Below, one piece after another: positions 1,026 through 39,600 of a DNA stretch of 45,791 nt. Positions within the stretch are counted from its first letter, which is position 1; every line of letters starts with the position of its first letter. Source of the stretch: Eubacteriales bacterium (GTDB lineage Bacteria > Bacillota > Clostridia > Oscillospirales > CAG-272); the NCBI GenBank assembly GCA_045632065.1, contig JAZQWA010000004.1, forward strand, positions 1 to 45,791. The letters run 5' to 3'. The translations under genes and the position numbers were made by a program. The notes under the pieces were generated by a model that worked only from the letters and a program-made list of their open reading frames with translations, made no database searches and was not told the DNA's origin.

Positions 1026-1052
1026 AAAAATACTCCTTACTAATCATTAAAG

Positions 1053-1081
1053 AAGGGTGCCGCAAATTAAGCGACACCCTT
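1053..1081 (-). terminator. Stem-loop between scfA and scfB (weak terminator or stabiliser)
   Basis: Minus strand AAGGGUGUCGC-uuaauuu-GCGGCACCCUU, an 11-bp stem with one G-U pair, followed by CUUUAAU. Confidence 0.6.
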
Positions 1082-1113
1082 GTCTTTGCGCGAGTAGCGC
1101 CCATGAAGTAAAA

Positions 1114-1263
1114 TTACTTCTGGTTCTTGTTCTCGCACTGCTGGTTTGCAACGCCGCAAGAGGTCTTGCAAGCAGACTGGCAAGAGGTCTGGCACTCGCC
1201 GCAGCCACCGTTCTCAACGGTCTTTGCAATATTCTTAGTTTCAACAGTATTGATTCTCTTCAT
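1114..1263 (-). CDS. scfA: SCIFF (six cysteines in forty-five residues) ranthipeptide precursor, 49 aa
   Basis: Manual translation MKRINTVETKNIAKTVENGGCGECQTSCQSACKTSCGVANQQCENKNQK*, with the canonical GGCGECQTSCQSACKTSC motif. RBS GGAGG upstream. Below the ORF-track size cut-off. Confidence 0.97.
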   Translation of the reverse strand: MKRINTVETKNIAKTVENGGCGECQTSCQSACKTSCGVANQQCENKNQK

Positions 1264-1301
1264 TTTAATAATCCTCCGATTACATAAATTTCAACGAATA
1301 C

Positions 1302-1330
1302 ATTATATCACAAGCTTTTTTGGTTGTCAA
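1302..1330 (-). promoter_or_regulatory. sigma-A promoter for scfAB
   Basis: TTGACA (1330-1325), 17 nt spacer, TATAAT (1307-1302) with TGn extended -10. Confidence 0.8.
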
Positions 1331-1438
1331 TAATTTTTTTAAAATAGGAAAAAAATATAAGATTGACGAAAATGAGCCGAGCTTGTAAAAATTCTTTCTT
1401 TGTTTTTTGGGAAAATCCCTGCCATGCGATATTTTCGC

Positions 1439-23721: not shown

Positions 23722-25470
23722 ATGATTTATTGCAAGAAATGCCGAAGCGAAAATACCTCATACGAGCCCTTCTGTCAGAAGTGCGGCGCTCTCTTTGAGC
23801 TTGACAGTAATGAAACTGACGCCCTGTTAAGAGAAGCGGCAGACAATATGAAATCGGGAAGCTACCGCCGCGCAGTTGAGCTGTATAAGTTCCTCGCAGG
23901 CATTGGAGTTACCGAGGGCGAGAGAGAATTTGCGCTTATTTTGGAGCGAGGACTGCTTGTACCCCGCAATATTGAGGTTGCATCCGCCTTCTTCGGCTCT
24001 GCGGCAAAGAAGGGTGATACCCTCTCGGCATATAAATATTCCACATTGCTTGTTGGAAATGAAAAAATTGCGGAGTTCTGGCTGGCATATGCCGCTCTGC
24101 AGGGTTGCAAGGACGCGTATTCCGATGCATTCAACCTCTACACGAAGCTTCGCGACAAGGAAACCGCCGCTTACTACTGCAACATTCTTGCCGAGGACGG
24201 CGACGTTGATGCAATTATTGAGATGGCTCGCCGACATCTTTACGGTGACGGTGTCGAGCAGAGCGAGGCGAATGCCAGATGGTATTTTGAGAAGCTTGAG
24301 CGCGCTCCCTTGCACGCTGTGAAGCTTTACAGACGCTTGCAGGCAATTGAGGACGAGGCAAAGGAGCCGAAGCGCCCCGAATTTACCTCCAAAATGAAAA
24401 TTATGCAGAAGCTTATTGCCGATGCAAGAAAATTCGGCTACAACAAGGTGCTTCTCTTGTTGGCGAAGGACTTTGCCGAGGCTGGCTCAATTGATGCGTC
24501 TATACATATCGCCTGTCTGCACATTGACGGCATTGAATTTGAAAAGAACGTCGAGCTTGGCATCTCTCTTTTAGAGGATGCGGTGGCAAAGGGCTCGGTA
24601 AGAGGCGCAAAGCTTCTTGGCGACATCTATGCCGAGGGACGTCAGGTTGATAAGGACAACCGCCTTGCCGCGCGTTATTACAGAAAGGCGGCAGAGCTTG
24701 GCGGCGATGGCGAATACGAGAGCCTCGGTGACGTTTTCTATAACGGAAGCGTTGAGGAGTCCGATTACGCTATGGCGCTTTGGCTTTACGAGAAGGGCGA
24801 GGCAGAGGGCGACGTTGGTTGTCGCGCCAAGGCCCGCGCAATGCGCAAGGAGCGTGAGGACAACTATATAGAGGGCTGTAAAATAGAAAAAACCTCTCCC
24901 GAGGAGGCTTTTGAGTACTTCAGAAAGTCGGTTACGGCAGGTTATCTGCCCGCCAACGCAAGAATCGGCTGGTATTATGAAAGAGGTATTGGCACGAAGG
25001 TTAATCGCAAGGCGGCATTTACTCATTACAAGGTGGCTTACGAGGCAAGCGACAAGCGCGCGATAGAGAGCCTCGGCAGATGCTACGCCAGAGGAATCGG
25101 AACTGCATTCGACTTCAAGAAGGCGGCGGAGCTTCTCAGCAAGGCAAAGGAAATGGGCTCTTACAGCGCAGACCGCGAGCTTTACCGCATTTACGAGAAC
25201 AAAAGACGTCATATGATACGCTCGCTTTACTCTACGGCTATGCGGCTTTACTACAACAAAAAGTTCGAGGCTGCAAGAGAGATGCTTGAGACCTGTATGC
25301 GACTGGGTGTGCCTGATGCGACCTACGCTATCGGTTGCCTTTACGAATTCGGCATTACCACCGCACCCGACAGAAAAATCGCTCTGCGCTTCTACAAAAA
25401 AGCGTACAGCGAGGGTTATAGCGACCCCGTTCAAGCGCACAAGCAGATAATGCTGAAGATGTCTAAATAA
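23722..25470 (+). CDS. Sel1-like repeat protein with N-terminal zinc ribbon
   Basis: N-terminal CKKC...CQKC. Repeats such as LGDIYAEGRQVDKDNRLAARYYRKAAELG and IGWYYERGIGTKVNRKAAFTHY. Confidence 0.88.
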   Translation: MIYCKKCRSENTSYEPFCQKCGALFELDSNETDALLREAADNMKSGSYRRAVELYKFLAGIGVTEGEREFALILERGLLVPRNIEVASAFFGSAAKKGDTLSAYKYSTLLVGNEKIAEFWLAYAALQGCKDAYSDAFNLYTKLRDKETAAYYCNILAEDGDVDAIIEMARRHLYGDGVEQSEANARWYFEKLERAPLHAVKLYRRLQAIEDEAKEPKRPEFTSKMKIMQKLIADARKFGYNKVLLLLAKDFAEAGSIDASIHIACLHIDGIEFEKNVELGISLLEDAVAKGSVRGAKLLGDIYAEGRQVDKDNRLAARYYRKAAELGGDGEYESLGDVFYNGSVEESDYAMALWLYEKGEAEGDVGCRAKARAMRKEREDNYIEGCKIEKTSPEEAFEYFRKSVTAGYLPANARIGWYYERGIGTKVNRKAAFTHYKVAYEASDKRAIESLGRCYARGIGTAFDFKKAAELLSKAKEMGSYSADRELYRIYENKRRHMIRSLYSTAMRLYYNKKFEAAREMLETCMRLGVPDATYAIGCLYEFGITTAPDRKIALRFYKKAYSEGYSDPVQAHKQIMLKMSK

Positions 25471-25491
25471 GCTATATATTATATATAATGT

Positions 25492-25521
25492 AAAAAACCG
25501 ACTCGATTGAGTCGGTTTTTT
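25492..25521. terminator. Bidirectional terminator between convergent genes
   Basis: Perfect AAAAAACCGACTC-gatt-GAGTCGGTTTTTT. Confidence 0.88.
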
Positions 25522-25537
25522 GCTTTGTGCGGTATCG

Positions 25538-25704
25538 GAAAGCCTCAGCTTTCGTTCTTACCAAATATACTCCGGATAATGAATAGTTAGATTTGAGTAA
25601 GAACCGCCGCTTGCGACCGAAGGCGTAGTTACCTACGTCGAGAGTGAAGCAAACGGCGTTAGAAAGCATTAGCTTTCGTTCTTACCAAATATAACATTCA
25701 TTAT
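25538..25704 (+). repeat. Structured intergenic element, copy C (25576-25704), plus an upstream duplicated 3' fragment
   Basis: Stems ATAATGAAT/ATTCATTAT, AGATTTG/CAAATAT, GTAAGAAC/GTTCTTAC and CGCCGCTTGC/GCAAACGGCG. Core GAAGGCGTAG-ttac-CTACGTCGA (25619-25641). Side hairpin GAAAGC..GCTTTC. 23-bp direct repeat AGCTTTCGTTCTTACCAAATATA at 25547-25569 and 25671-25693. Confidence 0.8.
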
Positions 25705-27464
25705 TTGTATTTTTCAAAGTAGGCGCTTGTATCCTCAAGCGTGGTAACCTTGGGCCAGCCCTTGATTATCTCAAAGAGGGTGGTGTAATAGGTTCTCTCG
25801 GTGAAGAAGGTCTCGTCATACTGCTCAAAGAGCTCGTATCTGCGCTCAAGCACGTACTGCTCAAACTCTTCGTCGGTGAAGTCCTCTCTGGTCTTCTTCT
25901 CAACCTGGGCAAGATGCTGATTTACGTACTCGTCGAGATAATCCTTTACGGTTTGCTCATACTTTGCGTTGAATTCTTCCTCGGAAAGCTCAATATTCTC
26001 AAGCTCCATAACGTAGAAGAGAATCATTCTCTCCTGAACCATGCTCTGCGCCATGCCTGTGAGATATTCGCGCCAGCTGTAGTTTGCGGGAAGTCCGAGA
26101 TATGCGCATGCGAAGGATTCAAGGTCGGAATAGGTCTTGTTCTGACCGTAGCTATCCTGAAGCGTACCGCCTGTGTAGCTGAACTGATACTCAACGTCTG
26201 CAAGGTATTCCTTATAAATAGCCTCAACCTTTGCCAATGGGTACTTCTTAACGTTTACAATCTTGCGGTAGTAACTCCAGATGGCATTCTCGAGAATTTC
26301 CTCGTATTCCTCATCATAAATCTTCTTTATGGTTTCGGTAGCGTAAGCATCGTATTTTTCAACAAGGGTTGCGCCCTCGTACTTGTTAAGAAGCTCTGCG
26401 GTAATTACATTTTCCTCATCGTCGATAAGCTTCTGAACGAAAGCGTCATCGAACTCGTCGTACTCGTAAAGCACTGCGCTCTCTACGTATACCTCAAAGT
26501 ATGCCTTTTCGTTACGAAGATTTGCAGTTTTGTAGTCGTAGGGGAAGTAGGTTTCAACAACGATAGGACCTTTTTCGGGATTGTTCTCGCAAGTAGTAAC
26601 AAAGTTTACGGTAACCTTGGTGTAATCGAACTCGTTATCACCCTTAGTAACGGTGATTTTGTCATTCTTTTCGCCTATCTTCATACCCGAAATTTTGTCA
26701 TAGAAGCCTACGCCGAAGTTCTTATCTACGTTTTCCTCAGAGGACATATCGATTCTTATGCCCTTCTGCTCAACGTCCTTGCCGTTCTGCTGGGTAGTAA
26801 AGGTTACGTACGCAACTGCGTTTTCATAATCCTCGACTTTGCCTATGGTGATTTTCTCAAACTTTGCATAGTCATCAGGCTTCTTGCCAACGAGGTTAAG
26901 CTCAAAGCCGGGAATAAGGGCAGACGAGCCGATTTCAAGGCTCTGCGCAGCTGCGCCTGTGAAGTTGCTCATACCCGGAACATCAACCTTCTCGCCCGTT
27001 GTGGGGTCCACGAGATAACCTCTGTACCAGATCTTAAGCTCTGCGCCGGGGGTAATGGTATATCCGCTGACTACCGATGCTCCGCCGTGCTTTGCTTCAC
27101 CCTTGTTGGTTGCCTGCAAATTAAGCTTTGCAACCGCAAGGTCGATAGGCTTCATAGGAGCGAAGTCTATATCAACTGTAAAGTTCTTATGATCCTGTGT
27201 GAATTCAATATACTTTGAGAGGTTGGACTTCTCGTAATCAAAGCCCTCATCTCTTACAATATATCTGATAAGAGCGATAAGACCGCCAACTGCCAATATT
27301 GCCACAAGAGCAATTGCGGTGATAACTATTGCAAGATTTTTCTCGGAGAAGAGCTTTTTAATGCCCTTTACCTCTTCGTCCTTCTTTGCAACAGGCTTTT
27401 TCACCTCAGGCTTCTTTACGTTAGCCTTCTTGGTGTTTGTATTTTTGTTTTTATTGTTGCTCAT
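25701..27464 (-). CDS. Membrane-anchored trigger-factor-like FKBP-type PPIase/chaperone
   Basis: Basic N-terminus plus TM helix. FKBP motifs KIWYRGYL and LEIGSSALIPGFELNLVGK. Trigger-factor-like FPYDYKTANLRNEKAYFEVYV..EFDDAFV and a helical C-domain. No GFRxGxxP ribosome-binding motif. Confidence 0.8.
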   Translation of the reverse strand: MSNNKNKNTNTKKANVKKPEVKKPVAKKDEEVKGIKKLFSEKNLAIVITAIALVAILAVGGLIALIRYIVRDEGFDYEKSNLSKYIEFTQDHKNFTVDIDFAPMKPIDLAVAKLNLQATNKGEAKHGGASVVSGYTITPGAELKIWYRGYLVDPTTGEKVDVPGMSNFTGAAAQSLEIGSSALIPGFELNLVGKKPDDYAKFEKITIGKVEDYENAVAYVTFTTQQNGKDVEQKGIRIDMSSEENVDKNFGVGFYDKISGMKIGEKNDKITVTKGDNEFDYTKVTVNFVTTCENNPEKGPIVVETYFPYDYKTANLRNEKAYFEVYVESAVLYEYDEFDDAFVQKLIDDEENVITAELLNKYEGATLVEKYDAYATETIKKIYDEEYEEILENAIWSYYRKIVNVKKYPLAKVEAIYKEYLADVEYQFSYTGGTLQDSYGQNKTYSDLESFACAYLGLPANYSWREYLTGMAQSMVQERMILFYVMELENIELSEEEFNAKYEQTVKDYLDEYVNQHLAQVEKKTREDFTDEEFEQYVLERRYELFEQYDETFFTERTYYTTLFEIIKGWPKVTTLEDTSAYFEKYK

Positions 27465-27494
27465 AGGTTAGAAAACCTTTCTTTTCTAAATCTT

Positions 27495-27929
27495 TTATTC
27501 AAAAGAGTCTGCAAAGGCTGTTGCAAGCCTGTCGCACCTCTCGTTATAGCTATGTCCATCGTGTCCCTTTACCCAAACGAACTCAACCGTGTGGGTTTCG
27601 GTAAGAGAGTAAAGCTTTTCCCACAAATCAGGGTTCTTCAGCGCCTCTCGTCCACGTCTCCAGCCCGCCGCGCGCCAGGATTCAACCCAGCCCTGTAAAT
27701 AAGCGTCAACCAGATATTTCGAATCCGAATAAAGAGTTACCTCGCAGGGCTCTCTCAGAGCCGAGAGCCCCTCGATAGCCGCAGTAAGCTCCATACGGTT
27801 GTTGGTGGTCTCCCTCTCGCCGCCCGAAAGCTCCTTTTCAAACTTTCCGTATACGAGAATTGCGCCCCAACCGCCCTTGCCGGGATTTCCTCGACAGGCT
27901 CCGTCGGTGTAAATCTGTACTTTTTTCAT
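27495..27929 (-). CDS. rnhA: Ribonuclease HI
   Basis: Motifs [32 protein letters not shown] and WVKGH..NERCD. Confidence 0.97.
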
Positions 27930-27949
27930 TTTTACCCTATATTTTAAAG

Positions 27950-27977
27950 AAAACGGGCGAAGATTTTCGCCCGTTTT
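27950..27977 (-). terminator. Terminator after the lipoprotein gene
   Basis: AAAACGGGCGAA-gatt-TTCGCCCGTTTT. Confidence 0.75.
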
Positions 27978-28020
27978 TCATTTTGTCATCATTCTGCAGG
28001 ACGGCAGAATTTACATATAA

Positions 28021-30300
28021 TTAGTGATCGTGATCGTGGTCGGTGTCGGTTTCGGTGCTGCCCTCAGAGCTGCCCTCGCCTGCAACGTCTATAACGTACT
28101 TAACATTTCTGAACTCAATAGTCCAGATACCTTCGTTATTTACAGCCTTTGCCTCAGTGTGAGTGTGTCCGCCATCCTCGGTGGATACAAGCTCGGTAGA
28201 GGTGAGGTAGTAGAAGAGCTTGTTGAACTGGAAGGATGCACGAACATTAAGCTCGCCATACTGGTCCATAACGTCCTTATAGAAGCGTCTGCCAACTTCC
28301 TTCTTGTACTGCTTCATGTAGTCCTTATCAACGTAGAAGTTCTCAGCGTCCTTGCGAGCGCTTTCCTTCTCCTCGTCGGTGGTGTATGCGCCAGCTGCGA
28401 TGTCGCTCTCAACGTAGCCTGCCATCTTTGCAATCGCGTCAGCCTCAACAACGCTTGCTACGTAGTAAAGCTGGATAATGGGCTTAAGCATTGCCTTAGC
28501 CTCTTCGGTAATAGCAGCCTCAACCTTGCTTGCGTCTGCAACCTTAAGAGTCTTTACAAGGTAATCGGTAAGAGTTGCGTATAAATCAACGTTTCTTACG
28601 CCGTTGGTGCTCTCTTTGTAGTACTTGTACTCGTAATCGTTGTAAATGAGGTCGTAGTATTCCTTAACTGCCTTCTCAGGATAGTTAGTAACCTCTACGG
28701 AATCCTTGATAAGAGTCCAAACTGCCTTCTGAACGTTCTCAACAATAGTCTTGTTGTACTTTTCTACAAGAGTATGCTCAATGCCCTCGTAGTACTCGTT
28801 GTAAAGAGCGTCGCCTGTCTCTTCGTTGGTGGTGGCCTTGTTAATCTTTTCAACGTAGGGAGCAACGGTCTTAAGCTGCTCTGCAAGAAGAGCTGCAGCT
28901 GCATCAGCAATTGCTTCCTTCTGCGCAGTTGTGGGTGAAGAACCACCGTCAGCTACTGCCTTGTCGTATGCAGCAAGACGATCCTTAAGATCGGAGCCAT
29001 CGGTATAAATCTCTGCGTTCTTGGTATCAAATACCTTAACCATCTCTGCTACAAGCTCGTTTACGGGAGTAGATGTCTCGCCCTCTACGTAGGTTGCATC
29101 CTTGAATGCATCGAAGTAATCAGCCTTAATCTTAGAGCCTACAACGTAGTTAAGAAGATCTGCGCCATTAACCTCTTCAACAGCGGGAGCGTCTACGTAG
29201 TATACGGGATATACGTAGTAAGTAAGCTCGGTATCCTTATCCATAGAAATGGTGTTGGTCTTACCATCCTTGCTGGTGTGAGCGCTGTCGGGAGCTACTG
29301 CGGTAGATGCGGTGAAGGGCTTGATAGTGAAGGAAAGGAAGGGCTCAACGTTCTCCTTAACCTCCCAACGAATAGTAACGTCGGAGTAGGTGTAGGTCTT
29401 GCCATCCTTTTCTACGGTAAACTTAGTAAGAGTCTTGCCTTCTTCATCAGCGTTGGGAACGCCAACAATCTTGCCAAGAGATGCGTTGTCAATAAGAATC
29501 TTGTGGAAGGGGTCAGCAGAATCAAGAGTTACCTGCTCGTACTTTGCAGTTACCTCGTTAACAACGTCCTGACCGTCAACGTTCTCGGTGTAAGAACGGG
29601 TGTAGCTGATAACGTAGGTCTTGCCAGCTGTAATCTCAAGAGCCTCCTTTACAGCGTTGTCAACTGCGGTCTGGATGCACTCCATCTTAAGCTTTTCAGC
29701 AGTCTTATCTTCGGTTGCCTCGTGAGTATGATTTGCCTCGCAATCCTCGGTAGCAGCCTTGGTTGCTGCAACCTTTGTATCCTTCTCAAGCTCAGCAGCA
29801 GTATACATATCGTAGATGTACTGCTCGATGTTCTCGTACTCCTTAGCGTCGAGAGCCTCCTTAAGAGCGCTCAAAACCTTCTCGGTGTCCTTAACGTCGC
29901 CAAGCTTGATAACGTGACCGCTGTTCTCTGCGGTTGCCTCGTTCATATTAGAGAAGTAGTATACGTTGTTATCCTTGTCAACTGCGTAGTAAACGAAGTA
30001 AAGAACGTCGCCGCCGTCAACCTTGCCTGTGGTAAGGTGCTCGGGATTGGTGTTAAGCAGACCTGTAACAACGGTGTTGTAGATCTGAGCCTTTACGTTT
30101 TCAACTCTCTTTGCTTCATCGTTAGTGAAGTCGCCATCCTTGATTTTAAGGCTCTGAAGAGCAGCCATAAAATCAACTCCATCCTTAAGTTTTGCATAGC
30201 TGCTGATATCCTCTACGAAATCAACAGACTTGGAGCAGCCTGTGAAAGCAAGAAGGGACATTACAACTACAAGAACCAAAGCAATAATTCTCTTTTTCAT
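28021..30300 (-). CDS. Large acidic lipoprotein with degenerate FKBP-like and trigger-factor C-terminal-like regions and His-rich motifs
   Basis: Lipobox LLAFTGC. Segments KVDGGDVLYFVYYA and ITAGKTYVISY. QKAVWTLIKDSVEVTNYPEKAVKEYY parallels ENAIWSYYRKIVNVKKYPLAKVEAIY of the 25701-27464 protein. Ends DTDHDHDH. Confidence 0.7.
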   Translation of the reverse strand: MKKRIIALVLVVVMSLLAFTGCSKSVDFVEDISSYAKLKDGVDFMAALQSLKIKDGDFTNDEAKRVENVKAQIYNTVVTGLLNTNPEHLTTGKVDGGDVLYFVYYAVDKDNNVYYFSNMNEATAENSGHVIKLGDVKDTEKVLSALKEALDAKEYENIEQYIYDMYTAAELEKDTKVAATKAATEDCEANHTHEATEDKTAEKLKMECIQTAVDNAVKEALEITAGKTYVISYTRSYTENVDGQDVVNEVTAKYEQVTLDSADPFHKILIDNASLGKIVGVPNADEEGKTLTKFTVEKDGKTYTYSDVTIRWEVKENVEPFLSFTIKPFTASTAVAPDSAHTSKDGKTNTISMDKDTELTYYVYPVYYVDAPAVEEVNGADLLNYVVGSKIKADYFDAFKDATYVEGETSTPVNELVAEMVKVFDTKNAEIYTDGSDLKDRLAAYDKAVADGGSSPTTAQKEAIADAAAALLAEQLKTVAPYVEKINKATTNEETGDALYNEYYEGIEHTLVEKYNKTIVENVQKAVWTLIKDSVEVTNYPEKAVKEYYDLIYNDYEYKYYKESTNGVRNVDLYATLTDYLVKTLKVADASKVEAAITEEAKAMLKPIIQLYYVASVVEADAIAKMAGYVESDIAAGAYTTDEEKESARKDAENFYVDKDYMKQYKKEVGRRFYKDVMDQYGELNVRASFQFNKLFYYLTSTELVSTEDGGHTHTEAKAVNNEGIWTIEFRNVKYVIDVAGEGSSEGSTETDTDHDHDH

Positions 30301-30372
30301 TGTCTTTTTCCTTACATAATAAATTTATTTCAAAATTCGTGCCAAAAACACGTTTATATTGATCTGTTTTGA

Positions 30373-30435
30373 CCGTTACTCACCCTATCAAGTGAGTAAC
30401 GGATTTATTATAGCACACAATATTGCAAATTGCAA
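30373..30435 (-). promoter_or_regulatory. Promoter of the lipoprotein gene with a perfect 11-bp inverted repeat at the predicted start site
   Basis: TTGCAA (30435-30430), 17 nt spacer, TGc-TATAAT (30412-30407). CCGTTACTCAC-N8-GTGAGTAACGG at 30373-30402. Confidence 0.65.
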
Positions 30436-30500
30436 ATGTTTTTTTATATTTTTTTAAATATTTTATATTTTAGTAACAATTTATAAATAATTAAAGATTT

Positions 30501-33401
30501 TTAGTTCCAATAGGATACGTCGGGATTAACCATAACACCGTTGAGAAGGTCGTTAAAGGAGTTAACAATCTTCTTCGCCGCAAATGTGGAAATATAGAAG
30601 CCCGAGCTCTCATCCTTTGAGCTATTTACAACATTGCCGTTGTCGTCTACTCTGTAAATCTGAACCATCACCTTTCTGTCGGTGGCGCGGTAGAAGTCGT
30701 AAACGTAGTGGTAATGTCCACCGATAAGAGAAAACTGCATAGAAAGTATCTTCTGGCAGCTTCCGATAACCTCGGCAGCCTCGTCCTTGTCGAGCGAGCC
30801 TGTGTAATTAACCGCAAAGAGCATCTGAAGGATATTCTTGAAGCTTGCTGCGCCTGCGGTGTCGTTTCTCACCATAAGCTCCTCGCCTGCAACCATATTG
30901 TAAATATCCGCAATATCAACTCCTGTTACAACAGGGTTATCCTTTATGAATTTCGAGAACACGCTGTACGACATATCCTCGCCAAGCGGTCTGGTTCTCA
31001 CCTTGAGAAGATTTACCGTGGTAGCGCCCTCTGTTCCGGGGGCAACAATATTGCCGTTGAGAACGTATTTCTTATCGTGAATAAGGTCGAATTCGTAGGA
31101 GCCGAATATATCGTCCATATTTATGTCAACCTTAATCTCGTCAATGTTGAGATAGTCAACCATTATAAGATTTTTTCTCGCCCAGTACTCGCCGAAGCTC
31201 TTTTCAAGGAAGTTGAACTGCGCGCCGTCAATCTCTACGATAATATCATACAAATCCGAAGCGATATATCTTGTGCCGTCGGACTGCGCCTTACTGATGT
31301 AGAGAGTGAAGCCGAGAGTGCTTGCCCAGGTGTAGTTGTCAAGCTCATCCTTGTCCGAGCCGTCCATAACACCTATTCCGCGAGGAAGCTCAAAATAAAT
31401 GGTATAACCCTCGTAAAGACCGAATTTCTCCATATTTGCGGGGGTAAGTCCTACCGCTACCGTCTTTTTACCCTCAAGGCCTGTTGCCATATTGCTGGAT
31501 TGACCGCCTACTCCGCCGAGAAGGAATGTTACAGTCTGGCAAGCAAAGGCATCGAGAGGATAACTGCGATACTCGTTTGTGAGAGTATTCTTGTAAATCG
31601 ACTCTGCATAGAAGGGGTCTCTGCCATCACCTGCCGTAGCATTGAGGAACTCGAAGGAAACCACCATTTCTCTCTCAACAAAGCCCTTGATTTCTCTTAT
31701 ACGATAGGTAAGGAAATCCTGCATATACTGCGTATATCTTGTCTCGCTGTAAACCGCCTCGTCGGGAAGCTCACCGGGACGAAGTCCCACAAGTGCCTCC
31801 TTGATTGCAAGGTCATCGCCTGCAATTATCTTGCTGAGGTCAACAAGCATTTCGCCCTCGTCAGCCGTATCTTTTCCGTCAATTACATACTTATATGCAA
31901 ACTTAACTATACATTCTGCGGTAATTTCGCTGGCATAAGAGAATGAACCGTCAGCATTTTTCTTCTGAACATAGATAATCTCGGTAATGAACATACTCAC
32001 GTTTCTGGGCGTGCCGTTCTGCTCATTGTAGCTCTCGTCCCACTTAATAGAAACGTCATCGCCAACTCTTGAATCAGCAAGGGTGGCTCTTACGCTTTCG
32101 GGAACGTTTGTGTTATTAAGGTCTATAATTGCATGCTGGGGCTCGGTGCTGGTATTGGTGGCGGAGTCATCAATTCTGCACTCGTAGGTAACTCTGACAA
32201 GGTCGCCCTCGCTAACAGGTGTGCCCACAGCCTCGATATCACAGCTATCGGTAACGACAGCCTCGATTTTCGTTATAGTGTAATGATAGGTTTTGCCAAA
32301 CACCGCCTCATTGGAGTTGAAAACGTAGCTGGCAACGATTTCATCAGAGCCCTCATACTTCGCTATCTGCTTATTTACAAGAGCGTTTATGAGTCTCTTT
32401 GCCTCATCGCTCTTGCTGAGATTTTGTAAATTGATAGAGAAGGACGAATATCCTGCGGATTTATATCCTGTTGTGCCCTCTGTGGAGGTGGAATTATAAA
32501 CAGGCTCAACTATGTCGGCAAAAACGATAACCTCGGATTTTTCCGACACAGGCTTTGTGCTGTTCTGTCCGTAATATGTGTTTGTCCACTGCTTGTAGTC
32601 CTGAGTAAGGAACGGGCCGTAAAGTCCGTCGCCTGGGAGTCCCTCTGCAATCACTCTGGAATGAAGGAAGCTCTCAACGTCACAAAGCAGGTTGTCAAAC
32701 TGGGTTGACGAGGAAACGTAGATGTAGTTTCTACCATCAATCATGTAGTAATATCCCTTACCGCTGATAAGCTTATTACCTACGTAGATATCAATCTCCT
32801 TTTCGCCGTCAGGGGTGAAATACTTAACGTATATATGCTCTCTGTGCTCCTTGTCAAGACCGTAGCGGGCAAGCTGAGCATCAAAATCTGCCTCAGGCTC
32901 AAGTCTATCGGCAAAATACATAGCGCCAATAGATGCCAGAACCATTGTAACCTTGGAAATACTGATTCCCATCGAATTGTCGGAAGCGTAAAAATCGTTG
33001 TAATCGGCTCCGCTTTCGGCAAACAGAATGTCGGGATAGTAAATTTTTTCATTTCCGTCCTCGTCAAGATAGGAGAACAGGAAATAATTTTCATAAAGAC
33101 CTGTAGCCTCCTCTTTGGGACGGCCGATGGCAAATGAGGATTTCTCACCCTTTACGCCAACCGAAATAATGGCGCTTGTCTGAATAGGCGCATATGCCAC
33201 AGGCGTCGTGCCGTGCATAGCCTCGCCATCCTTAAGCGCGATAGGCTCCTTCTGCTGTGTCTGTCCGTTATTTGTTCCCGCAAGAGAGGATATAACCGCA
33301 GAAAGTATAACGTATCCTGCAATCAGGAATACCAAAACTGCCGAGGTGATAATTATCGCCAGATGAGTTTTTGAAAGCTTATTTTTCTTAACTTCTACCA
33401 T
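30501..33401 (-). CDS. Membrane-anchored DUF4340-like protein with inserted FKBP-like modules
   Basis: N-terminal TM. DUF4340-like units LARYGLD...IYVGNK..GKGYYYMIDG..YIYV and MEKFGL...TLYIS..DGTRYI. Intervening VSEGDLVRVTYECRID, VKFAYKYVIDG..AIKEALVGLRPG and LINALVNKQI..GKTYHYTITKI. Occupies the usual DUF4340 position after GldG-like genes. Confidence 0.65.
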   Translation of the reverse strand: MVEVKKNKLSKTHLAIIITSAVLVFLIAGYVILSAVISSLAGTNNGQTQQKEPIALKDGEAMHGTTPVAYAPIQTSAIISVGVKGEKSSFAIGRPKEEATGLYENYFLFSYLDEDGNEKIYYPDILFAESGADYNDFYASDNSMGISISKVTMVLASIGAMYFADRLEPEADFDAQLARYGLDKEHREHIYVKYFTPDGEKEIDIYVGNKLISGKGYYYMIDGRNYIYVSSSTQFDNLLCDVESFLHSRVIAEGLPGDGLYGPFLTQDYKQWTNTYYGQNSTKPVSEKSEVIVFADIVEPVYNSTSTEGTTGYKSAGYSSFSINLQNLSKSDEAKRLINALVNKQIAKYEGSDEIVASYVFNSNEAVFGKTYHYTITKIEAVVTDSCDIEAVGTPVSEGDLVRVTYECRIDDSATNTSTEPQHAIIDLNNTNVPESVRATLADSRVGDDVSIKWDESYNEQNGTPRNVSMFITEIIYVQKKNADGSFSYASEITAECIVKFAYKYVIDGKDTADEGEMLVDLSKIIAGDDLAIKEALVGLRPGELPDEAVYSETRYTQYMQDFLTYRIREIKGFVEREMVVSFEFLNATAGDGRDPFYAESIYKNTLTNEYRSYPLDAFACQTVTFLLGGVGGQSSNMATGLEGKKTVAVGLTPANMEKFGLYEGYTIYFELPRGIGVMDGSDKDELDNYTWASTLGFTLYISKAQSDGTRYIASDLYDIIVEIDGAQFNFLEKSFGEYWARKNLIMVDYLNIDEIKVDINMDDIFGSYEFDLIHDKKYVLNGNIVAPGTEGATTVNLLKVRTRPLGEDMSYSVFSKFIKDNPVVTGVDIADIYNMVAGEELMVRNDTAGAASFKNILQMLFAVNYTGSLDKDEAAEVIGSCQKILSMQFSLIGGHYHYVYDFYRATDRKVMVQIYRVDDNGNVVNSSKDESSGFYISTFAAKKIVNSFNDLLNGVMVNPDVSYWN

Positions 33402-33412
33402 AGCGCACCTCC

Positions 33413-35062
33413 TTATAAGAATCTGCGCTTAATGCGCACAGCTATGCCAAGAGCTGCAATAGCAACAGGTATAATCATTATAATAACCGTCATAACGGTT
33501 ACAGTGCCCTTGGTAAGCGCTAAATAGCTTCTGTTTTCATCCTTGGTTTCCACGTCGTAAATTGAGTAATCGGTAAGAATCTTACCACCGCGGTTAACTG
33601 TATTCTTACCGTCGTGGCCAAGCTCTGCATCGGCATACTCGTCGGTACGAATAACGTTCTCAGTATAAGCGCTCATTACCTCGTAATTTGCAAACGAGGG
33701 GTTGCCAAGCGTTTCGTTAGAGAAGAAATCACCGCTGTTTGCGCAGAAAACGTAGGAATATTTGTATTCGCCTGTTTCGGAGTTAATCTCAATTCTCGAG
33801 GTTACGCCTGCAATATACTGACGGCCTACCGCTTCGAGAATATTGTATTCGTCCATATCGCCCTTATTGTAGGCTCTCGCCTCGTCGGAGGAGTACAGGA
33901 AGGGCGCAAAGTTTCTCGCAACCGCATAAGTGCCGGGCTCGTTGATGCTCTCGGCATCGCCGTAGGAGCACTTAATGTAGCCGCTGTTGCCAACAACTAC
34001 GCTGGGAGCGCTGGAAAGCGATGCAAAATCGCCGTAAATCGCCTGACCGTAGCTATCGGGGTCGGAGTCGTAATGAGTAACAAGGTCGGTGAAGGTGCGC
34101 TCAGCGTTCTCAACGTGGGATTTTTCGTCTGTAAGGAGCGAGTCGCTGAATTCGAAGCCCCACTCGTAAAGGAATTCCTCAAGATTGGGAAGGGTGGTTG
34201 CATAATCCTTGGCAACCATAACCGCGCCTTGATTATCAATGATGTATCTGTCGATTTTTTCGCACTCGGAGGCGTAGCCGAATTCGCCAAGCCTGTCGGT
34301 GTCAACCTTAAAGTCGGATGTGGGATTGTTGATAATAAGAAGCACGCAATCCTCGGGAACTCTGTCTACCGAGGTAAGGTCAAGAGGCAGAGCCTCAAGT
34401 CCTCTGTCGGAGAGCATATCGTAAAGAGCCGCAGCCTTAAGACCCTGCGCATTCTCGGGGTCATTAACGTCATAGTAGGTCTCGCCGTGGCCTACGGTGA
34501 AGTATGCCTTGGGACGATTAACCGTTGTAACCGATTTTATAAGGTTTGCAAGCTTATATTCACCGTTGAAGGCAATAAGCTCACCTGTGCTTCTGGAAAT
34601 CCAGAAATAGTTTGCGCTGACAATTCTGTATCTTGTTCCGTAGGAAACAATTATGTCAGAGGGCAAAATCTGAGACATCGAGGTGGACTTATACTGCGAA
34701 ACCGCGGTGGGATTATACGTCACGTTTACCGTCTCAACGGTAAAGTTCTTAAAGCACTTTTGCATCTGGAGCGCCATAAAGTACGCCACTCTGGTCACCT
34801 GATTTGACAAAAGCGTATCGGGGTCGGAGCAGAAGGTAACCTTAACCTCACCCTCAAGGCCCTCGATATAGGAGCATTCCTGCTTCATAAGGTCTGTAAG
34901 AGTGTAAAGTCCCTCGTCGGTAAGGTCAACCATAACGGTTTTTTGCTCACCGAGCTTGGTCATCAAAAGGTTAAGAGCCAACAGAACGACAATCGCCAGA
35001 AGAGTTATAACGGCGAAAATTCTGTTTCTTGCGCCTCTGCTTTTTAAAGCATCAAATTTCAT
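33413..35062 (-). CDS. GldG-family ABC transporter auxiliary component
   Basis: N- and C-terminal TMs, DLTDEGLYTLT, AYFTVGHGE, LLIINNPTSDF, and a basic C-terminus IKRRFL. Confidence 0.85.
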   Translation of the reverse strand: MKFDALKSRGARNRIFAVITLLAIVVLLALNLLMTKLGEQKTVMVDLTDEGLYTLTDLMKQECSYIEGLEGEVKVTFCSDPDTLLSNQVTRVAYFMALQMQKCFKNFTVETVNVTYNPTAVSQYKSTSMSQILPSDIIVSYGTRYRIVSANYFWISRSTGELIAFNGEYKLANLIKSVTTVNRPKAYFTVGHGETYYDVNDPENAQGLKAAALYDMLSDRGLEALPLDLTSVDRVPEDCVLLIINNPTSDFKVDTDRLGEFGYASECEKIDRYIIDNQGAVMVAKDYATTLPNLEEFLYEWGFEFSDSLLTDEKSHVENAERTFTDLVTHYDSDPDSYGQAIYGDFASLSSAPSVVVGNSGYIKCSYGDAESINEPGTYAVARNFAPFLYSSDEARAYNKGDMDEYNILEAVGRQYIAGVTSRIEINSETGEYKYSYVFCANSGDFFSNETLGNPSFANYEVMSAYTENVIRTDEYADAELGHDGKNTVNRGGKILTDYSIYDVETKDENRSYLALTKGTVTVMTVIIMIIPVAIAALGIAVRIKRRFL

Positions 35063-35068
35063 CTATGT

Positions 35069-36598
35069 TTACCTATTCTTTCTTCTAACCAGAACCACGC
35101 CACCCAAAATGCCGATAACGACAGGAATAGCAATAAGCACGGCAGTGTATATTCTTGCTGTGCCGACAGTCAGATTTTCAAGCACGGAGTGCTGATAAAT
35201 CACACTGCGACAGCCGTAGGGCATATCACCCTTCTCAAAGAATACGTCAAAGAGAGAGTATAAAAAGTCTTTATTGGAGTATCTGTCGGTAACAATCGCA
35301 TCGGATGCGGTAAGCATACCGTCAGACATAACAACTATTGCAGAATCCTCTGTGGAGTTGTTGGAATAGCGGGAATACGCTGCGATAGCGTAATCTCCGT
35401 CAGAGTTAACTCTCACACCGCCCGCCTCAAGAGTCGATGAGGGGGAAGCCACAAGGAGAGGTCTTGCTTCCGCAAAATTGGGGTCTATGGCAATAGAAGC
35501 CACGTTACGAAGGACAACCCTGGGGTTTTCAGCTCCTGCGCGATTAACGATTTTATCACGCATAGCCGAGGCAACCTCACTGTCGGCAAATTCAGCAACA
35601 AGAGTGAATCCGTCGGCAGTAATTGCATTAGACGACTCTCTTACAAGAGCCTTCTCGCCCGAGTCGGCTGTTTCAAAGGACAGTCCGTACTCGCCGATAA
35701 ACTGTGAAAGCGTACCAAAGGGCTTGTTGATAAGCGGGTCAACGATAACCATAAGCTTACCGCCTCTGCCTCGATAATCAACAAGTCTGTCGTACTCCGT
35801 CCAAAGCGACGAGCCCTCTGCTCCGCGCTCAAAATCAACCACAGGATTAGAAATGATAACCAAATCGGCATCCTCGGGCACGTCATTCTTCCTGAGATTA
35901 AGCTCCTTTACGAGATATCCCGCAGAGGAAAGTATAGTGTAAAGAATAGCGTTTGAGGTCTCACCGTGACCTGTGGTGAAATATGCGATTTGTTGACTTT
36001 CAGCAGGCTGAAGCGCCCAAAGCACAGAGGACGCAAACACCTCCTCACCGTTATAAGAGGTGGGAGTGAGCTGACTGTCAAGAGTATAGAAATTAGCGTA
36101 ACCTGTTATGGAAAAGCTGTCTGTCAATACACGATAGTTGGTTTCTGTGGAGAAAATCACCGAGTTTTCGTTGATAAATTCTCCCTCTCTCTGCGTAAAC
36201 TGCGAGAGGTCATAGGGAGCGCCGTCGGAATCCAGCTGTGTAAGAGCGTTAACGAATTTAAGATTGATAAATTCGGGGTATCTTTCCTCAAAATATTTAG
36301 CGGTGCGATAAACCGCAGCGCCTTTTTCGTTATTTTTAACCGAGTCCTCATAGGAACAGAAAATAACGTCAACCTTACGTCCGCTCTCTATATATTCGGC
36401 AAAAAACGCGTCGTTTGACGAGGAAATGGACAAATCGTACTCCTCGTCCTTATGAATATACAGCGAAAAGGCGCTTGTAAGAGTATAAGTAATTATGTTT
36501 ACGAACACAACGGCGCAGATTATCACCGCGGTAAGCACCGCAGAGGAGAAATTACGCCCCCTAACAAAGCCCGTAAACCCTTGTTTAAGCTTGTTCAT
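35069..36598 (-). CDS. GldG-family ABC transporter auxiliary component (second paralog)
   Basis: N- and C-terminal TMs, YNGEEVFASSV, AYFTTGHGE, VPEDADLVIISNPVVDF, YSNKDF, and C-terminus VRRKNR. Confidence 0.85.
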   Translation of the reverse strand: MNKLKQGFTGFVRGRNFSSAVLTAVIICAVVFVNIITYTLTSAFSLYIHKDEEYDLSISSSNDAFFAEYIESGRKVDVIFCSYEDSVKNNEKGAAVYRTAKYFEERYPEFINLKFVNALTQLDSDGAPYDLSQFTQREGEFINENSVIFSTETNYRVLTDSFSITGYANFYTLDSQLTPTSYNGEEVFASSVLWALQPAESQQIAYFTTGHGETSNAILYTILSSAGYLVKELNLRKNDVPEDADLVIISNPVVDFERGAEGSSLWTEYDRLVDYRGRGGKLMVIVDPLINKPFGTLSQFIGEYGLSFETADSGEKALVRESSNAITADGFTLVAEFADSEVASAMRDKIVNRAGAENPRVVLRNVASIAIDPNFAEARPLLVASPSSTLEAGGVRVNSDGDYAIAAYSRYSNNSTEDSAIVVMSDGMLTASDAIVTDRYSNKDFLYSLFDVFFEKGDMPYGCRSVIYQHSVLENLTVGTARIYTAVLIAIPVVIGILGGVVLVRRKNR

Positions 36599-36636
36599 AT
36601 ATAAATTTCTTCCTTTTTGCGTTTTTTAGGTGTAAA

Positions 36637-37344
36637 TCAATTATATCTTCTGCGGTCGAATACTCTGACGGTGAGATATAAGAACACTGCGCAAACAGAG
36701 AAGTAATAAACAACGGAAGCAAGGTCGAAATAACCGTTTGTAAAGGTCTGGAATCTTGTGAAAATCGAGAGGGCGTCAAATACAAATCTGAGCCAGTAGT
36801 TCTGGGGAAGAAGCATACCGATAACGCCAACGATTAGCATCGCAAGAATAATTCCTATGCTTCCAACTGCAGCGCTGAGCTGGTTTTCGGTAAGCGAGGA
36901 CACGAAAATGCCCACCGCGATAAACACAAGGCCAACCATAAGAAGCGCAAGCATATTGCCGAGAAGCAATGCAACGTTAAGCACTGCGTAAGGCAAAAGA
37001 AGAAGGAAATAAAGAGTGGAAAATACGGTGGCAGCGGCAAAAATCGCATAGGATGCAAGGAATTTACCCATCACCATAGCGGTTATGGAAACCGGTGAGG
37101 TGAGAAGAAGCTGCTCTGTCTTACCCTTTTTCTCCTCGCTGAAGGACTTCATTGTAAGAATGGGAAGCATGATGGCAGAAAGAAGCATCATTATTGTAAA
37201 ATAGGTGGTAACGTTAGAGGACATGGCAAAAAGCGTTGTTGCGCAGAATGCAATTCCCGCTACCGCAAGGAACATTACGAGGAATACGTAACCCATAACA
37301 CCGGTAAAGTATCCCTTGATTTCTCTTTTAAATATAGCAAGCAT
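36637..37344 (-). CDS. GldF-like ABC-2 type permease
   Basis: MLAIFKREIKGYF, TMKSFSEEKKGKTEQLLLTSPV..VMGKFLA, SSLTENQ; about 6 TMs. Confidence 0.9.
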   Translation of the reverse strand: MLAIFKREIKGYFTGVMGYVFLVMFLAVAGIAFCATTLFAMSSNVTTYFTIMMLLSAIMLPILTMKSFSEEKKGKTEQLLLTSPVSITAMVMGKFLASYAIFAAATVFSTLYFLLLLPYAVLNVALLLGNMLALLMVGLVFIAVGIFVSSLTENQLSAAVGSIGIILAMLIVGVIGMLLPQNYWLRFVFDALSIFTRFQTFTNGYFDLASVVYYFSVCAVFLYLTVRVFDRRRYN

Positions 37345-37367
37345 TTTGTTTTCCTACCTTTCCTTGA

Positions 37368-38342
37368 TTAACGGCTTCTCTTACTCTTGGTTTTCACGCC
37401 CGACTTTGCCTCGGAGCGATCAACAAGGCGGATGAATACCGATTCAAGATCTGTGCCAACAGGGGCAAGACCAATCATAGGCCAATTGTTCTGCACGCAA
37501 ACCGAGAACAAAGGCTTTCTGACGTCAATGCCGGGGTTCATAGAGATAACGAACACGTTAGCGTCACCGTCACGTGCGCCTGTCGCCTCTGCAGACTGAA
37601 TACCGTTGATTTTATTGATAGCGCTGACAACGTCCTTTACAGGTCCGCAAATTCTGGCTTCGTAACGGTAGCCGTCCTCGATGGTTCTTGTAATTTCGTC
37701 TGTTCTCGCGTCGGCAATGATGTTACCCTTATTTATAATGATAACTCTCTCACAGATAGCCTGTACCTCTGCAAGAATATGGGTAGAGAGAATAACCGTA
37801 TGCTTCTTACCGAGAGTACGGATAAGATTTCTCACCTCAAGAATCTGCTTGGGGTCAAGACCAACGGTGGGCTCGTCAAAGATAATAACCTTGGGGTCAC
37901 CCATAATCGCCTGGGCGATACCAACTCTCTGCTTATAGCCCTTGGAAAGATTCTTTATAAGACGCTTCTTCACGTCGTTAAGTCTTACAACCGACAAAAC
38001 CTCGTCAATGTGAGCCTGCTTGTCCAGCTTACAGCCCTTAAGCTCGTAAACGAACTCAAGATATTCGTAAACCGTCATATCAGGATAAACAGGAGGCTGC
38101 TCGGGAAGGAAGCCTATGTATTTCTTCGCTTCAAGAGGATTCTCCAAAATGTCAATTCCGTTAACGTATGCTCTGCCCGAGGTGGAGGAGAGATATCCTG
38201 TAAGGATATTCATCGCAGTGGACTTACCTGCTCCGTTAGGGCCGAGAAGACCAACGATTTCACCCTCGCCGATTTCGAAGGATACGTCGTTTAAAGCGTA
38301 ATTTGAGCCATACCTTTTCACAAGGTTTTCAACTTTTACCAT
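37368..38342 (-). CDS. GldA-like ABC transporter ATP-binding protein
   Basis: Walker A GPNGAGKST, GldA-type signature LSKGYKQRVGIAQA, DEPTVGLDPKQI, ILSTHIL. Start moved to ATG 38342 (MVKVEN). Confidence 0.93.
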   Translation of the reverse strand: MVKVENLVKRYGSNYALNDVSFEIGEGEIVGLLGPNGAGKSTAMNILTGYLSSTSGRAYVNGIDILENPLEAKKYIGFLPEQPPVYPDMTVYEYLEFVYELKGCKLDKQAHIDEVLSVVRLNDVKKRLIKNLSKGYKQRVGIAQAIMGDPKVIIFDEPTVGLDPKQILEVRNLIRTLGKKHTVILSTHILAEVQAICERVIIINKGNIIADARTDEITRTIEDGYRYEARICGPVKDVVSAINKINGIQSAEATGARDGDANVFVISMNPGIDVRKPLFSVCVQNNWPMIGLAPVGTDLESVFIRLVDRSEAKSGVKTKSKRSR

Positions 38343-38533
38343 TTTTATATCTGCCTTTCTTAATGGGGCTTCTAGGCTTTTTGCTATTAAAAAATGCAAA
38401 AAAAGCCACTTTTTCACCATAACTTTTTCATTATATCATACAATTAAGAACAAACTATTAACAAAATAAATAAAAATAATATTTTATTATGTAAAATATC
38501 CCACTAAAACGGCGGCATCTGCGGATTTGCTAC

Positions 38534-38562
38534 TTGACAAAAATTTCAAATCATTGTATAAT
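38534..38562 (+). promoter_or_regulatory. Consensus sigma-A promoter for trpS
   Basis: TTGACA (38534-38539), 17 nt spacer, TATAAT (38557-38562). Confidence 0.8.
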
Positions 38563-38604
38563 TTCTTTTAAGATATAAAATCGGTGCCGAAAGGAACAAC
38601 TCTA

Positions 38605-39600
38605 ATGACAGGCGATAAGAAAACGGTTTTCTCGGGTGTTCAGCCCTCGGGAAACCTGACGATAGGAAACTATCTCGGAGCTATTAAGAATTTTTCAAGA
38701 TTTTCAGAGGAATATAAAACCTTCTACTGCGTGGTTGACCTTCACGCAATTACCGTAAGACAGGTTCCTGCGGAGCTTCGCCGCAGAACATACGAGACTC
38801 TTGCGCTTTATATGGCTTGCGGTCTTGACGAGAAGAAAAATACTCTTTTCGTTCAGTCCCACGTGCCTGCGCACGCAGAGCTTGGCTGGATGCTTGACTG
38901 CTATACAATGTTTGGCGAGCTTTCACGTATGACACAGTTCAAGGACAAGTCTGCAAAGAACGCGCAGAATATAAATGCAGGTCTTTTCACCTACCCTGCT
39001 CTTATGGCAGCTGATATTTTGCTTTATCAGACAGACGTTGTGCCTGTGGGAATTGACCAAAAGCAGCATCTCGAGCTTGCGCGCGACGTTGCAATGCGCT
39101 TTAACCAGATTTACGGCGATACATTCACCGTTCCCGAGGGATATATTTCCCAGGATACCATGAAAATTATGTCGCTTGCAGAGCCCACCTCGAAAATGTC
39201 CAAGTCTGATGCAAATCAGAACGCGGTAGTATACATACTCGACTCCAAGGACGACGTAATGCGCAAATTCAAGAAGGCGGTTACCGACTCCGAGGCGATT
39301 GTTAAGTACTCCGAGGACAAGCCCGGCGTTTCCAACCTTATGACCATATACCGCGCCTTTACAGGCAAGAGCTTCGAGGAAATCGAGCGTGAGTTCGACG
39401 GCAAGGGATATGGCGATTTCAAAATGGCGGTTGGCGAGGCTTGCGCTGACGGACTCGCTCCCGTAAGAGACGAGTTTGCTCGTCTTATGGCAGACAAGGC
39501 GCACCTTGAGGCAGTTATGAAGGCTGGCGCTGACGAGGCGGCATACTACGCTCGTAAAACCATGTCCAAAGTTAAAAGAAAGATTGGTTTTGTAAACTAA
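38605..39600 (+). CDS. trpS: Tryptophan--tRNA ligase
   Basis: FSGVQPSGNLTIGNYLG (TIGN variant of HIGH), YPALMAADILLY, VPVGIDQKQH and KMSKS. Start set at ATG 38605 after AAGGA. Confidence 0.97.
   Translation: MTGDKKTVFSGVQPSGNLTIGNYLGAIKNFSRFSEEYKTFYCVVDLHAITVRQVPAELRRRTYETLALYMACGLDEKKNTLFVQSHVPAHAELGWMLDCYTMFGELSRMTQFKDKSAKNAQNINAGLFTYPALMAADILLYQTDVVPVGIDQKQHLELARDVAMRFNQIYGDTFTVPEGYISQDTMKIMSLAEPTSKMSKSDANQNAVVYILDSKDDVMRKFKKAVTDSEAIVKYSEDKPGVSNLMTIYRAFTGKSFEEIEREFDGKGYGDFKMAVGEACADGLAPVRDEFARLMADKAHLEAVMKAGADEAAYYARKTMSKVKRKIGFVN

Follow-up and report, generated by a model that had tools for sequence, protein, structure and literature searches.

Trigger factor is the textbook ribosome-bound chaperone of the bacterial cytoplasm, and its helical C-domain is the cradle in which client proteins are bound. 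The known model of an extracellular foldase in Gram-positive bacteria is the parvulin PrsA; PrsA, SurA and PpiD have a trigger factor-like chaperone module. ATP-binding cassette (ABC) systems with GldF and GldG are described in a literature that comes almost entirely from Bacteroidota. Here we analyse a locus in a 45,791-nucleotide stretch of DNA from a Eubacteriales bacterium of the order Oscillospirales (assembly GCA_045632065.1, contig JAZQWA010000004.1; the whole stretch is called the window below), in which a Gld-like ABC module of five genes lies upstream of genes for a lipoprotein of 759 amino acids (aa) and a membrane-anchored protein of 587 aa. The profile and model comparisons reported below give good support to the view that these two proteins are paralogous, membrane-tethered trigger-factor homologues without the N domain, which would act as exported trigger factor-like chaperones. 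Our literature search returned no paper on exported or membrane-anchored trigger-factor homologues, or on a linkage of such genes to gldAFG-like genes. As regards the upstream genes, we give about an even chance to a reading in which the pair are exported holdase/foldases derived from trigger factor and the ABC/GldG/DUF4340 complex is their ancestral, dispensable and optional partner.

Eight co-oriented open reading frames (ORFs) occupy the minus strand of 25701-38420 in the ORF listing of the window. All of them lie where an earlier reading of these letters (the original prediction) had placed the eight genes that it joined into one ABC-energised machine for export and folding. The features of the locus are as follows:

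37368..38420, minus strand: ABC ATPase, GldA-like, ORF of 350 aa (Pfam ABC_tran, E 4.3e-33; TIGR03522 GldA, E 3.7e-92, 309 bits)
36637..37344, minus strand: ABC-2 permease, GldF-like (TIGR03518 GldF, E 1.2e-29, 104 bits; ABC2_membrane_3 and ABC2_membrane_2; 6 hydrophobic segments)
35069..36598, minus strand: GldG-like auxiliary protein 1, 509 aa (PF09822 ABC_transp_aux, E 4.5e-6, 26.5 bits; hydropathy scan)
33413..35062, minus strand: GldG-like auxiliary protein 2, 549 aa (PF09822, E 4.1e-6, 26.7 bits; hydropathy scan)
30501..33401, minus strand: 966-aa protein with N-terminal anchor and DUF4340-like end domains (PF14238, structural matches)
31647..32618, minus strand: possible degenerate FKBP-like repeats, residues 262-585 of the 966-aa protein (sub-domain hhalign, structure alignment)
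30407..30436, minus strand: promoter-like site, TTGCAA, 17 nt, TG-n-TATAAT (consensus match only)
28021..30300, minus strand: 759-aa lipoprotein, trigger factor-like, without ribosome-binding domain, outer FKBP domain degenerate (hhalign, model alignment)
29341..29649, minus strand: nested FKBP-fold domain, residues 218-320 of the 759-aa lipoprotein (structure alignment and hhalign)
27949..27978, minus strand: terminator-like hairpin in the gap between the lipoprotein gene and rnhA (consensus match only)
27495..27929, minus strand: rnhA, RNase HI (NF001236, E 8.5e-61, 203.9 bits, cut-off 160)
25701..27464, minus strand: 587-aa trigger factor-like protein with FKBP and Trigger_C domains, Lys-rich N-terminal tail and single anchor (TIGR00115, Pfam)
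26565..26879, minus strand: nested insert domain, residues 196-300 of the 587-aa protein (flanked by the IPGFE motif and the FPYDY strand)

The trigger factor model TIGR00115 (tig) matches residues 302-539 of the 587-aa protein, which take in the end of its FKBP domain and the C-domain, at model positions 203-406 (E 7.2e-12), and a profile built from 45 homologues of this protein retrieves trigger factor 1t11 from the PDB (E 1.9e-6). In the alignment of the family profile to trigger factor, IPGFE and the FPxDY strand (FPYDY here) are both matched, and the insert at residues 196-300 coincides exactly with the break. Many of the homologues are already tagged with PF00254 or PF05698, and many FKBP-core positions are invariant in the family. 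The conserved FKBP core motifs are retained in the 587-aa protein, which may therefore still have prolyl isomerase activity.

The 759-aa lipoprotein is connected to trigger factor through its paralogue. The profiles of the two families align with each other (hhalign, 99.5%, E 1.5e-22, 425 columns), from which we take the two proteins to be paralogues, and residues 498-632 of the lipoprotein align to the C-domain of the 587-aa family as a Trigger_C-type region. Trigger factor chains cover residues 33-742 of its AlphaFold model (pLDDT 86.4) at Z 6.2-6.6; trigger factor 3gty_X aligns over 287 residues, from its residue 108 to its end (Z 6.6, root-mean-square deviation (rmsd) 12.0), and 7zgi_B over 284 residues (Z 5.8). 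The high rmsd of the trigger factor chains (11-12) is expected, because these are elongated multi-domain proteins. FKBP26, SlyD, SlpA, FKBP13 and FKBP12 align to residues 221-317 (Z 5.9-6.8, rmsd 2.2-2.6, 72-74 residues), and further FKBPs span residues 89-371 (90-371 at Z 5.9-6.0), delimiting the outer FKBP domain. In the model, a second FKBP-fold domain thus appears to be held inside the outer one, and this insert (218-320) has its homologue in residues 196-300 of the 587-aa protein (hhalign, 96.7%, E 4.4e-10).

Several results weigh against the assignment of the pair to trigger factor. The TIGR00115 match of the 587-aa protein (44.9 bits) does not reach the curated cut-off of 180.2, and its Pfam matches lie just below the gathering scores (FKBP_C 20.9 bits against 21.1, Trigger_C 21.1 against 22.7, E 3.5e-4). 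The 759-aa lipoprotein has no Pfam match and no match to TIGR00115, with Trigger_C found in only 1/50 members of its family. A PDB sequence search with this protein gave no match, and its family profile reached trigger factor at E 1.6-1.8 only. Foldseek with the whole lipoprotein model returned no significant match, trigger factor 3gty_X standing third at E 0.026. The structural scores of Z 4-7 fall in the middling range of the tool, and we have therefore relied on them only jointly with sequence homology. The nearest Protein Atlas clusters of the lipoprotein (0.83-0.88), some of which carry Trigger_C or FKBP_C, serve as leads only.

IPGFE, the motif whose Phe is required for the peptidyl-prolyl isomerase (PPIase) activity of trigger factor, has been lost in the family of the 759-aa lipoprotein, and the lipoprotein is probably a holdase only, to judge from its sequence. 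Loss of the motif would also suit an alternative in which the trigger factor-like proteins serve a single surface structure or substrate as dedicated binding or scaffold components, the FKBP and trigger factor folds having been reused as binding modules. Pfam FKBP_C hardly recognises the nested and repeated FKBP-like modules, and the lipoprotein family is small and lineage-restricted: in a set of 1.84 billion representatives, its profile matches 471 clusters at E<=1e-3, of which 314 reach E<=1e-30. Against this stand the many invariant FKBP-core positions in the 587-aa family, the helical trigger factor C-domain that both proteins keep whole, and the result of the neighbour survey, in which no dedicated client gene was conserved beside the pair. 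We regard such a scaffold role as very improbable.

In terms of domain composition, both proteins of the window follow trigger factor in having an FKBP domain and then a helical C-terminal arms domain. They differ from it in three respects: the ribosome-binding N domain is missing (neither protein matches Pfam Trigger_N at E<=0.01), a lipobox or signal anchor takes the place of a cytoplasmic location, and a further domain of FKBP fold, ~100 residues long, is inserted between IPGFE and the FPxDY strand. A separate canonical tig gene is encoded in the same genome (415.9 bits), and the pair is, as far as gene content can tell, additional to the housekeeping chaperones. The 759-aa protein begins with a lipobox-like ...FTGC, whose C22 is invariant across 50 sequences, and a lipobox-like Cys is found in 47/50 family members. 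Hydropathy indicates a single N-terminal anchor in the 587-aa protein, a signal anchor in 45/45 members of its family, and also a single N-terminal hydrophobic anchor in the 966-aa protein; in the three families together, N-terminal hydrophobic segments are found in 50/50, 45/45 and 50/50 aligned members. The original prediction had all three proteins facing outwards, and these family-wide segments and the lipobox agree with it at the level of sequence prediction.

Both proteins of the pair carry charged tails. The cytoplasmic tail of the 587-aa protein (27338-27464, minus strand) has ~40 residues, is Lys-rich and carries a net charge of +9, compared with a family median of 19 residues and +3; as a matter of speculation, it might bind anionic lipid or ribosomes. 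The C-terminus of the lipoprotein (28021-28060, minus strand) is acidic and His-rich (...TDTDHDHDH), a feature absent from the family consensus and resembling the metal-binding tail of SlyD.

The design of the pair resembles that of PrsA, a lipoprotein foldase of Bacillota, and of SurA and PpiD, in that a PPIase-plus-chaperone unit is tethered outside the cytoplasm and presumably acts after translocation. The difference lies in the catalytic domain, which is a parvulin in those proteins and an FKBP in the window pair; in Pfam, the Rotamase (parvulin) family has no match in either protein, and the SurA_N families have none at E<=0.01. SlyD, SlpA and FKBP26, which are among the best structural matches, likewise have an FKBP domain interrupted by an insert (the IF chaperone domain), but in the window pair the insert is itself an FKBP fold. 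Compared with SlyD, the window insert probably occupies a different loop, coming before, not after, the FPxDY strand.

We also considered whether the pair replaces a missing PrsA. The sole parvulin found in the window genome (G000, C8:7212-7958, minus strand; L060 413-1159) has ~248 aa and no signal peptide, and the sole parvulin found in genomes G265, G001 and G003 likewise lacks one. As a rule the idea is unsupported, two species of the same genus that have the cluster (G181 and G331) having PrsA-like lipoproteins as well.

These observations suggest a pathway in which a trigger factor ancestor would have exchanged its ribosome-binding N domain for a membrane tether and acquired, within its FKBP domain, a second domain of the FKBP fold. 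The resulting pair would most likely be holdase/foldases that work without ATP on proteins emerging from the Sec channel, in the manner of PrsA. Exported, tethered copies of trigger factor with an FKBP nested in an FKBP would be a new design of extracellular foldase in Gram-positive bacteria.

Gaps of 23, 38, 6 and 11 bp lie between the five upstream genes. The ATPase probably starts at Met27 (position 38342), a start which the original prediction had chosen and which is plausible because the family match begins at residue 28. The module resembles GldA/GldF/GldG of Flavobacterium johnsoniae in the best NCBIfam matches of its ATPase and permease and in the layout of ATPase, ABC-2 permease and GldG-type protein; it differs in having two GldG-like genes and a DUF4340 gene and in scoring far below the equivalog cut-offs (GldA 309 bits against 402.6, GldF 104 bits against 288.5). 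Neither GldG-like protein has an NCBIfam match, and both are sub-threshold for ABC_transp_aux (26.5 and 26.7 bits, where the gathering score is 34.7). The hydropathy scan finds six segments in the permease and one at either end of each GldG-like protein, which predicts a large outer domain between the end segments. PDB sequence searches gave no match for the permease or for GldG-like protein 2, and no gliding or type IX secretion context was seen in the window. In the NosDFY system, an ABC-2 complex works with the lipoprotein chaperone NosL, an instance of energising work outside the membrane. The five genes may encode a separate envelope complex, composed of the ABC-2 ATPase, the permease, two GldG-like proteins and the DUF4340 protein.

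The DUF4340 family (PF14238) matches residues 140-249 of the 966-aa protein (E 2.9e-8, 34.6 bits against a gathering score of 25) and is found in 46/50 family members. Its gene directly follows the ABC and GldG-like genes, as in other cases of DUF4340 next to ABC genes; a SAR11 study predicts a DUF4340 protein to be a subunit of the adjacent ABC transporter (PMC13712998), and a DUF4340 gene is listed as essential in a Verrucomicrobium study (PMC12283558). The window protein differs from such neighbours of ABC genes in its length of 966 residues, with what appear to be two or three FKBP-like modules in the middle.

The AlphaFold model of this protein (pLDDT 85.5) is mostly beta, and its end regions resemble the small structural-genomics proteins 4q0y, 2mct and 4r7r (Z 5.2-5.5). 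Among the 50 chains listed, 17 are FKBP, SlyD, SlpA or trigger factor PPIase chains, which align to residues 267-580 (one row to 671) at Z 4.1-5.3. Sub-domain comparisons with hhalign relate residues 385-482 to 488-585 (92.8%) and 262-384 to 385-482 (79.9%), and relate the chaperones' insert (587-aa family) to residues 488-585 (87.8%, E 3.3e-6) and 385-482 (54.8%). In a sliding-window control on the 966-aa family, the signal was confined to windows spanning 251-600 (scores 20-36), compared with 9-13 for the other 11 windows and 8-14 for 16 column-shuffled comparisons. These results point weakly to two clear and one less clear degenerate FKBP-like repeat within residues 262-585.

Such a reading has points against it. 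FKBP_C reaches only E 0.016, in 1/50 family members (Pfam), and the FKBP-like assignment stands on hhalign values of 55-88% and Z 4-5. When the whole profile of the 966-aa family was compared with both trigger factor-like families (hhalign), only the membrane helix aligned, or nothing; a PDB sequence search gave no match; and no helical C-domain of the trigger factor type was detected in the protein. The original prediction of FKBP/trigger factor-like segments in all three downstream proteins therefore stands firmly for the 587-aa and 759-aa proteins, and for the 966-aa protein only in a weak FKBP-like form and without the trigger factor C-domain. Two further results were set aside: the Foldseek rows for the whole 966-aa model (DDB1 and SF3b, TM-scores 0.06-0.08) are meaningless, and the DUF4340 clusters returned by the Protein Atlas for residues 262-600 (0.79) lie below noise level. 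A complex prediction for residues 262-600 of the 966-aa protein with residues 70-587 of the 587-aa protein gave a score of 0.00, which counts neither for nor against binding.

A module common to the DUF4340 subunit and the chaperones, and missing from ordinary short relatives of either, would count against the absence of any functional link between them. The ABC/GldG/DUF4340 complex may have arisen beside the chaperones, its DUF4340 subunit carrying two or three copies of the insert-related module, and it may cooperate with them on some clients, the chaperones working without it. A bolder proposal, which we consider unlikely, is that the locus is the remnant of an ATP-coupled extracellular chaperone system. 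There, the ABC-2 motor would move the GldG/DUF4340 assembly, whose FKBP-like modules would pair with the nested modules of the trigger factor homologues and so drive capture and release of clients on the ATP-free trans side, and the Lys-rich tail might place the 587-aa protein at translating Sec channels.

In order to follow the linkage across genomes, we used two scans. The scan anchored on the lipoprotein in species-representative genomes gave 41 loci, of which 39 were judged after exclusion of L040 (no hidden Markov model (HMM) hit) and L041 (no upstream room). The ABC module lies directly upstream of the lipoprotein gene in 23/39 loci (21 complete, two cut by a contig end). The metagenome scan anchored on the 966-aa protein gave 16 loci, four of which end too soon; in all 12 judgeable loci, a trigger factor-like gene lies downstream of the 966-aa family gene. 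It belongs to the lipoprotein family in 11 of them (HMM) and is a divergent trigger factor-like ORF in the twelfth, L056 (hhalign, 96.6%). The linkage is lopsided, being complete from the 966-aa anchor and partial from the lipoprotein anchor.

In the other 16/39 lipoprotein-anchored loci, the ABC module is absent at the same syntenic site and the trigger factor-like pair is kept. In twelve of these loci the upstream sequence extends for 4.9 kb or more, and in the remaining four trpS is directly adjacent. The flanks of the ABC-less loci match those of the window, in that one side carries trpS, maf and nth and the opposite side the Sel1-repeat gene and nrdD, so that the five genes are simply missing from the same site. 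The 966-aa family had no match anywhere in 5/5 ABC-less genomes searched. A point that weighs on the other side is that the ABC-less genomes are metagenome-assembled genomes, for which completeness is not given.

A FastTree phylogeny of 49 lipoprotein ORFs with midpoint root, from which L006 (gene split) and ORFs <550 aa were left out, places ABC-linked loci on all deep branches. The 11 ABC-less rows are all contained in one 17-row clade (support 100), which also includes the window, L014 and L019. On this tree, five changes are needed to account for the ABC-less state, four of them forced by well-supported branches. On the simplest reading, the eight-gene cluster would be ancestral, and the ABC module would have been lost repeatedly and recently. 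We consider the module dispensable because 16/39 loci lack it, none of the five such genomes holds the 966-aa family and the tree forces at least four changes; judging from this pattern, the ABC module and the chaperones would be at most optional partners.

The same results bear on the original prediction of a single, obligate machine outside the cytoplasm, in which ATP hydrolysis through GldF, GldG and the DUF4340 protein would drive the holding and release of clients by the FKBP and trigger factor modules. The linkage is ancestral, deep and one-sided, an FKBP-like module appears common to the DUF4340 protein and the chaperones, and all the large proteins are predicted to be membrane-tethered with outer domains, as such a machine would have it, with NosDFY and NosL as a precedent. 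The machine conflicts, however, with the 16 loci that keep the pair alone, with the five genomes devoid of the 966-aa family and with the changes forced on the tree. It is weakened further by the equal synteny of trpS and rnhA and by what appear to be separate transcription signals. The 759-aa gene is preceded by a 200-bp AT-rich gap, and a consensus scan finds in it a promoter-like site with 10/12 consensus matches and an extended -10 (TTGCAA-17-TGcTATAAT). The 91-bp gap before rnhA holds the terminator-like hairpin, a GC-rich 13-pair stem followed by TTTTCTTT on the minus strand, and the 587-aa gene comes after a gap of 30 bp. We hold an obligate machine to be quite improbable.

Downstream of the lipoprotein gene, rnhA and the second trigger factor-like gene are present in 37/37 loci with downstream room. 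Between the trigger factor-like paralogues, rnhA is found in loci L003-L059 down to ~25% lipoprotein identity, sometimes 30 bp from the downstream gene or overlapping it.

A point against reading a partnership into the conserved adjacency is that trpS (25 ABC-containing loci) and rnhA share in it. As these two genes have unrelated functions and are equally conserved, synteny alone does not show cooperation, and pure coincidence of position is a serious rival. It would mean that the ABC/GldG/DUF4340 complex handles a non-protein envelope component and that the pair are general foldases, an old gene order having been kept. The promoter-like site and hairpin of the lipoprotein gene fit this alternative, as does the loss of the ABC module at least four times with the pair retained. 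So does the situation in other genera of the same family, where 4/4 fetched loci encode a single trigger factor-like lipoprotein of 410-448 aa without the insert domain, and no ABC, GldG-like, DUF4340 or rnhA gene occurs within the fetched flanks of 2.8-9.2 kb. It does not explain why the 966-aa family always comes with a downstream trigger factor-like gene (12/12), nor why the eight-gene order outlasts trpS adjacency, if in only three loci (L059, L071 and L072). Together with the module that the DUF4340 subunit and the chaperones seem to have in common, this leaves the absence of a functional link, in our judgement, a substantial minority possibility, and optional partnership remains the reading we prefer.

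The distribution of the families is narrow. The full-length 966-aa family was found in 1/151 genomes across the order (the window genome only) and, in a family-level sample, in 4/201 genomes, all in the genus of the window (1/97 genera). The profile of the 587-aa family matches in 13/201 genomes and 8/97 genera, and for relatives from other genera the match is restricted to profile positions 48-182 and 272-496, without the insert. Two divergent species of the same genus keep the eight-gene order, one of them with a 618-aa DUF4340 protein and two trigger factor-like proteins of the lipoprotein type. Species with and without the ABC module offer a natural comparison for the role of GldAFG/DUF4340-type transporters outside Bacteroidota.

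An Rfam scan of 25000-39000 matched no RNA family. In two bovine-gut metatranscriptome runs from one study, 0.43 and 0.34 of the sampled words from 25600-33500 were present, which is only a hint that the cluster is expressed in the bovine gut. The remainder of the window consists of housekeeping genes (the pyrimidine operon, nrdD, trpS, maf and nth). Converging on the cluster from the plus strand (23722-25470) is the gene for a 582-aa zinc-ribbon and Sel1-repeat protein, which is syntenic in many related loci. A 923-aa protein (14746-17517, minus strand) is a MacB-like fusion of an ABC ATPase domain with a permease end of the FtsX type. Within the row of pyrimidine genes (pyrF, pyrD, pyrK-like, carB, pyrC) lies a 903-aa protein (5482-8193, minus strand) with Glyco_hydro_2_N as its sole match, and at the start of the window (1-2773, minus strand) a radical-SAM protein with a PqqD domain adjoins a BspA-type leucine-rich-repeat protein.

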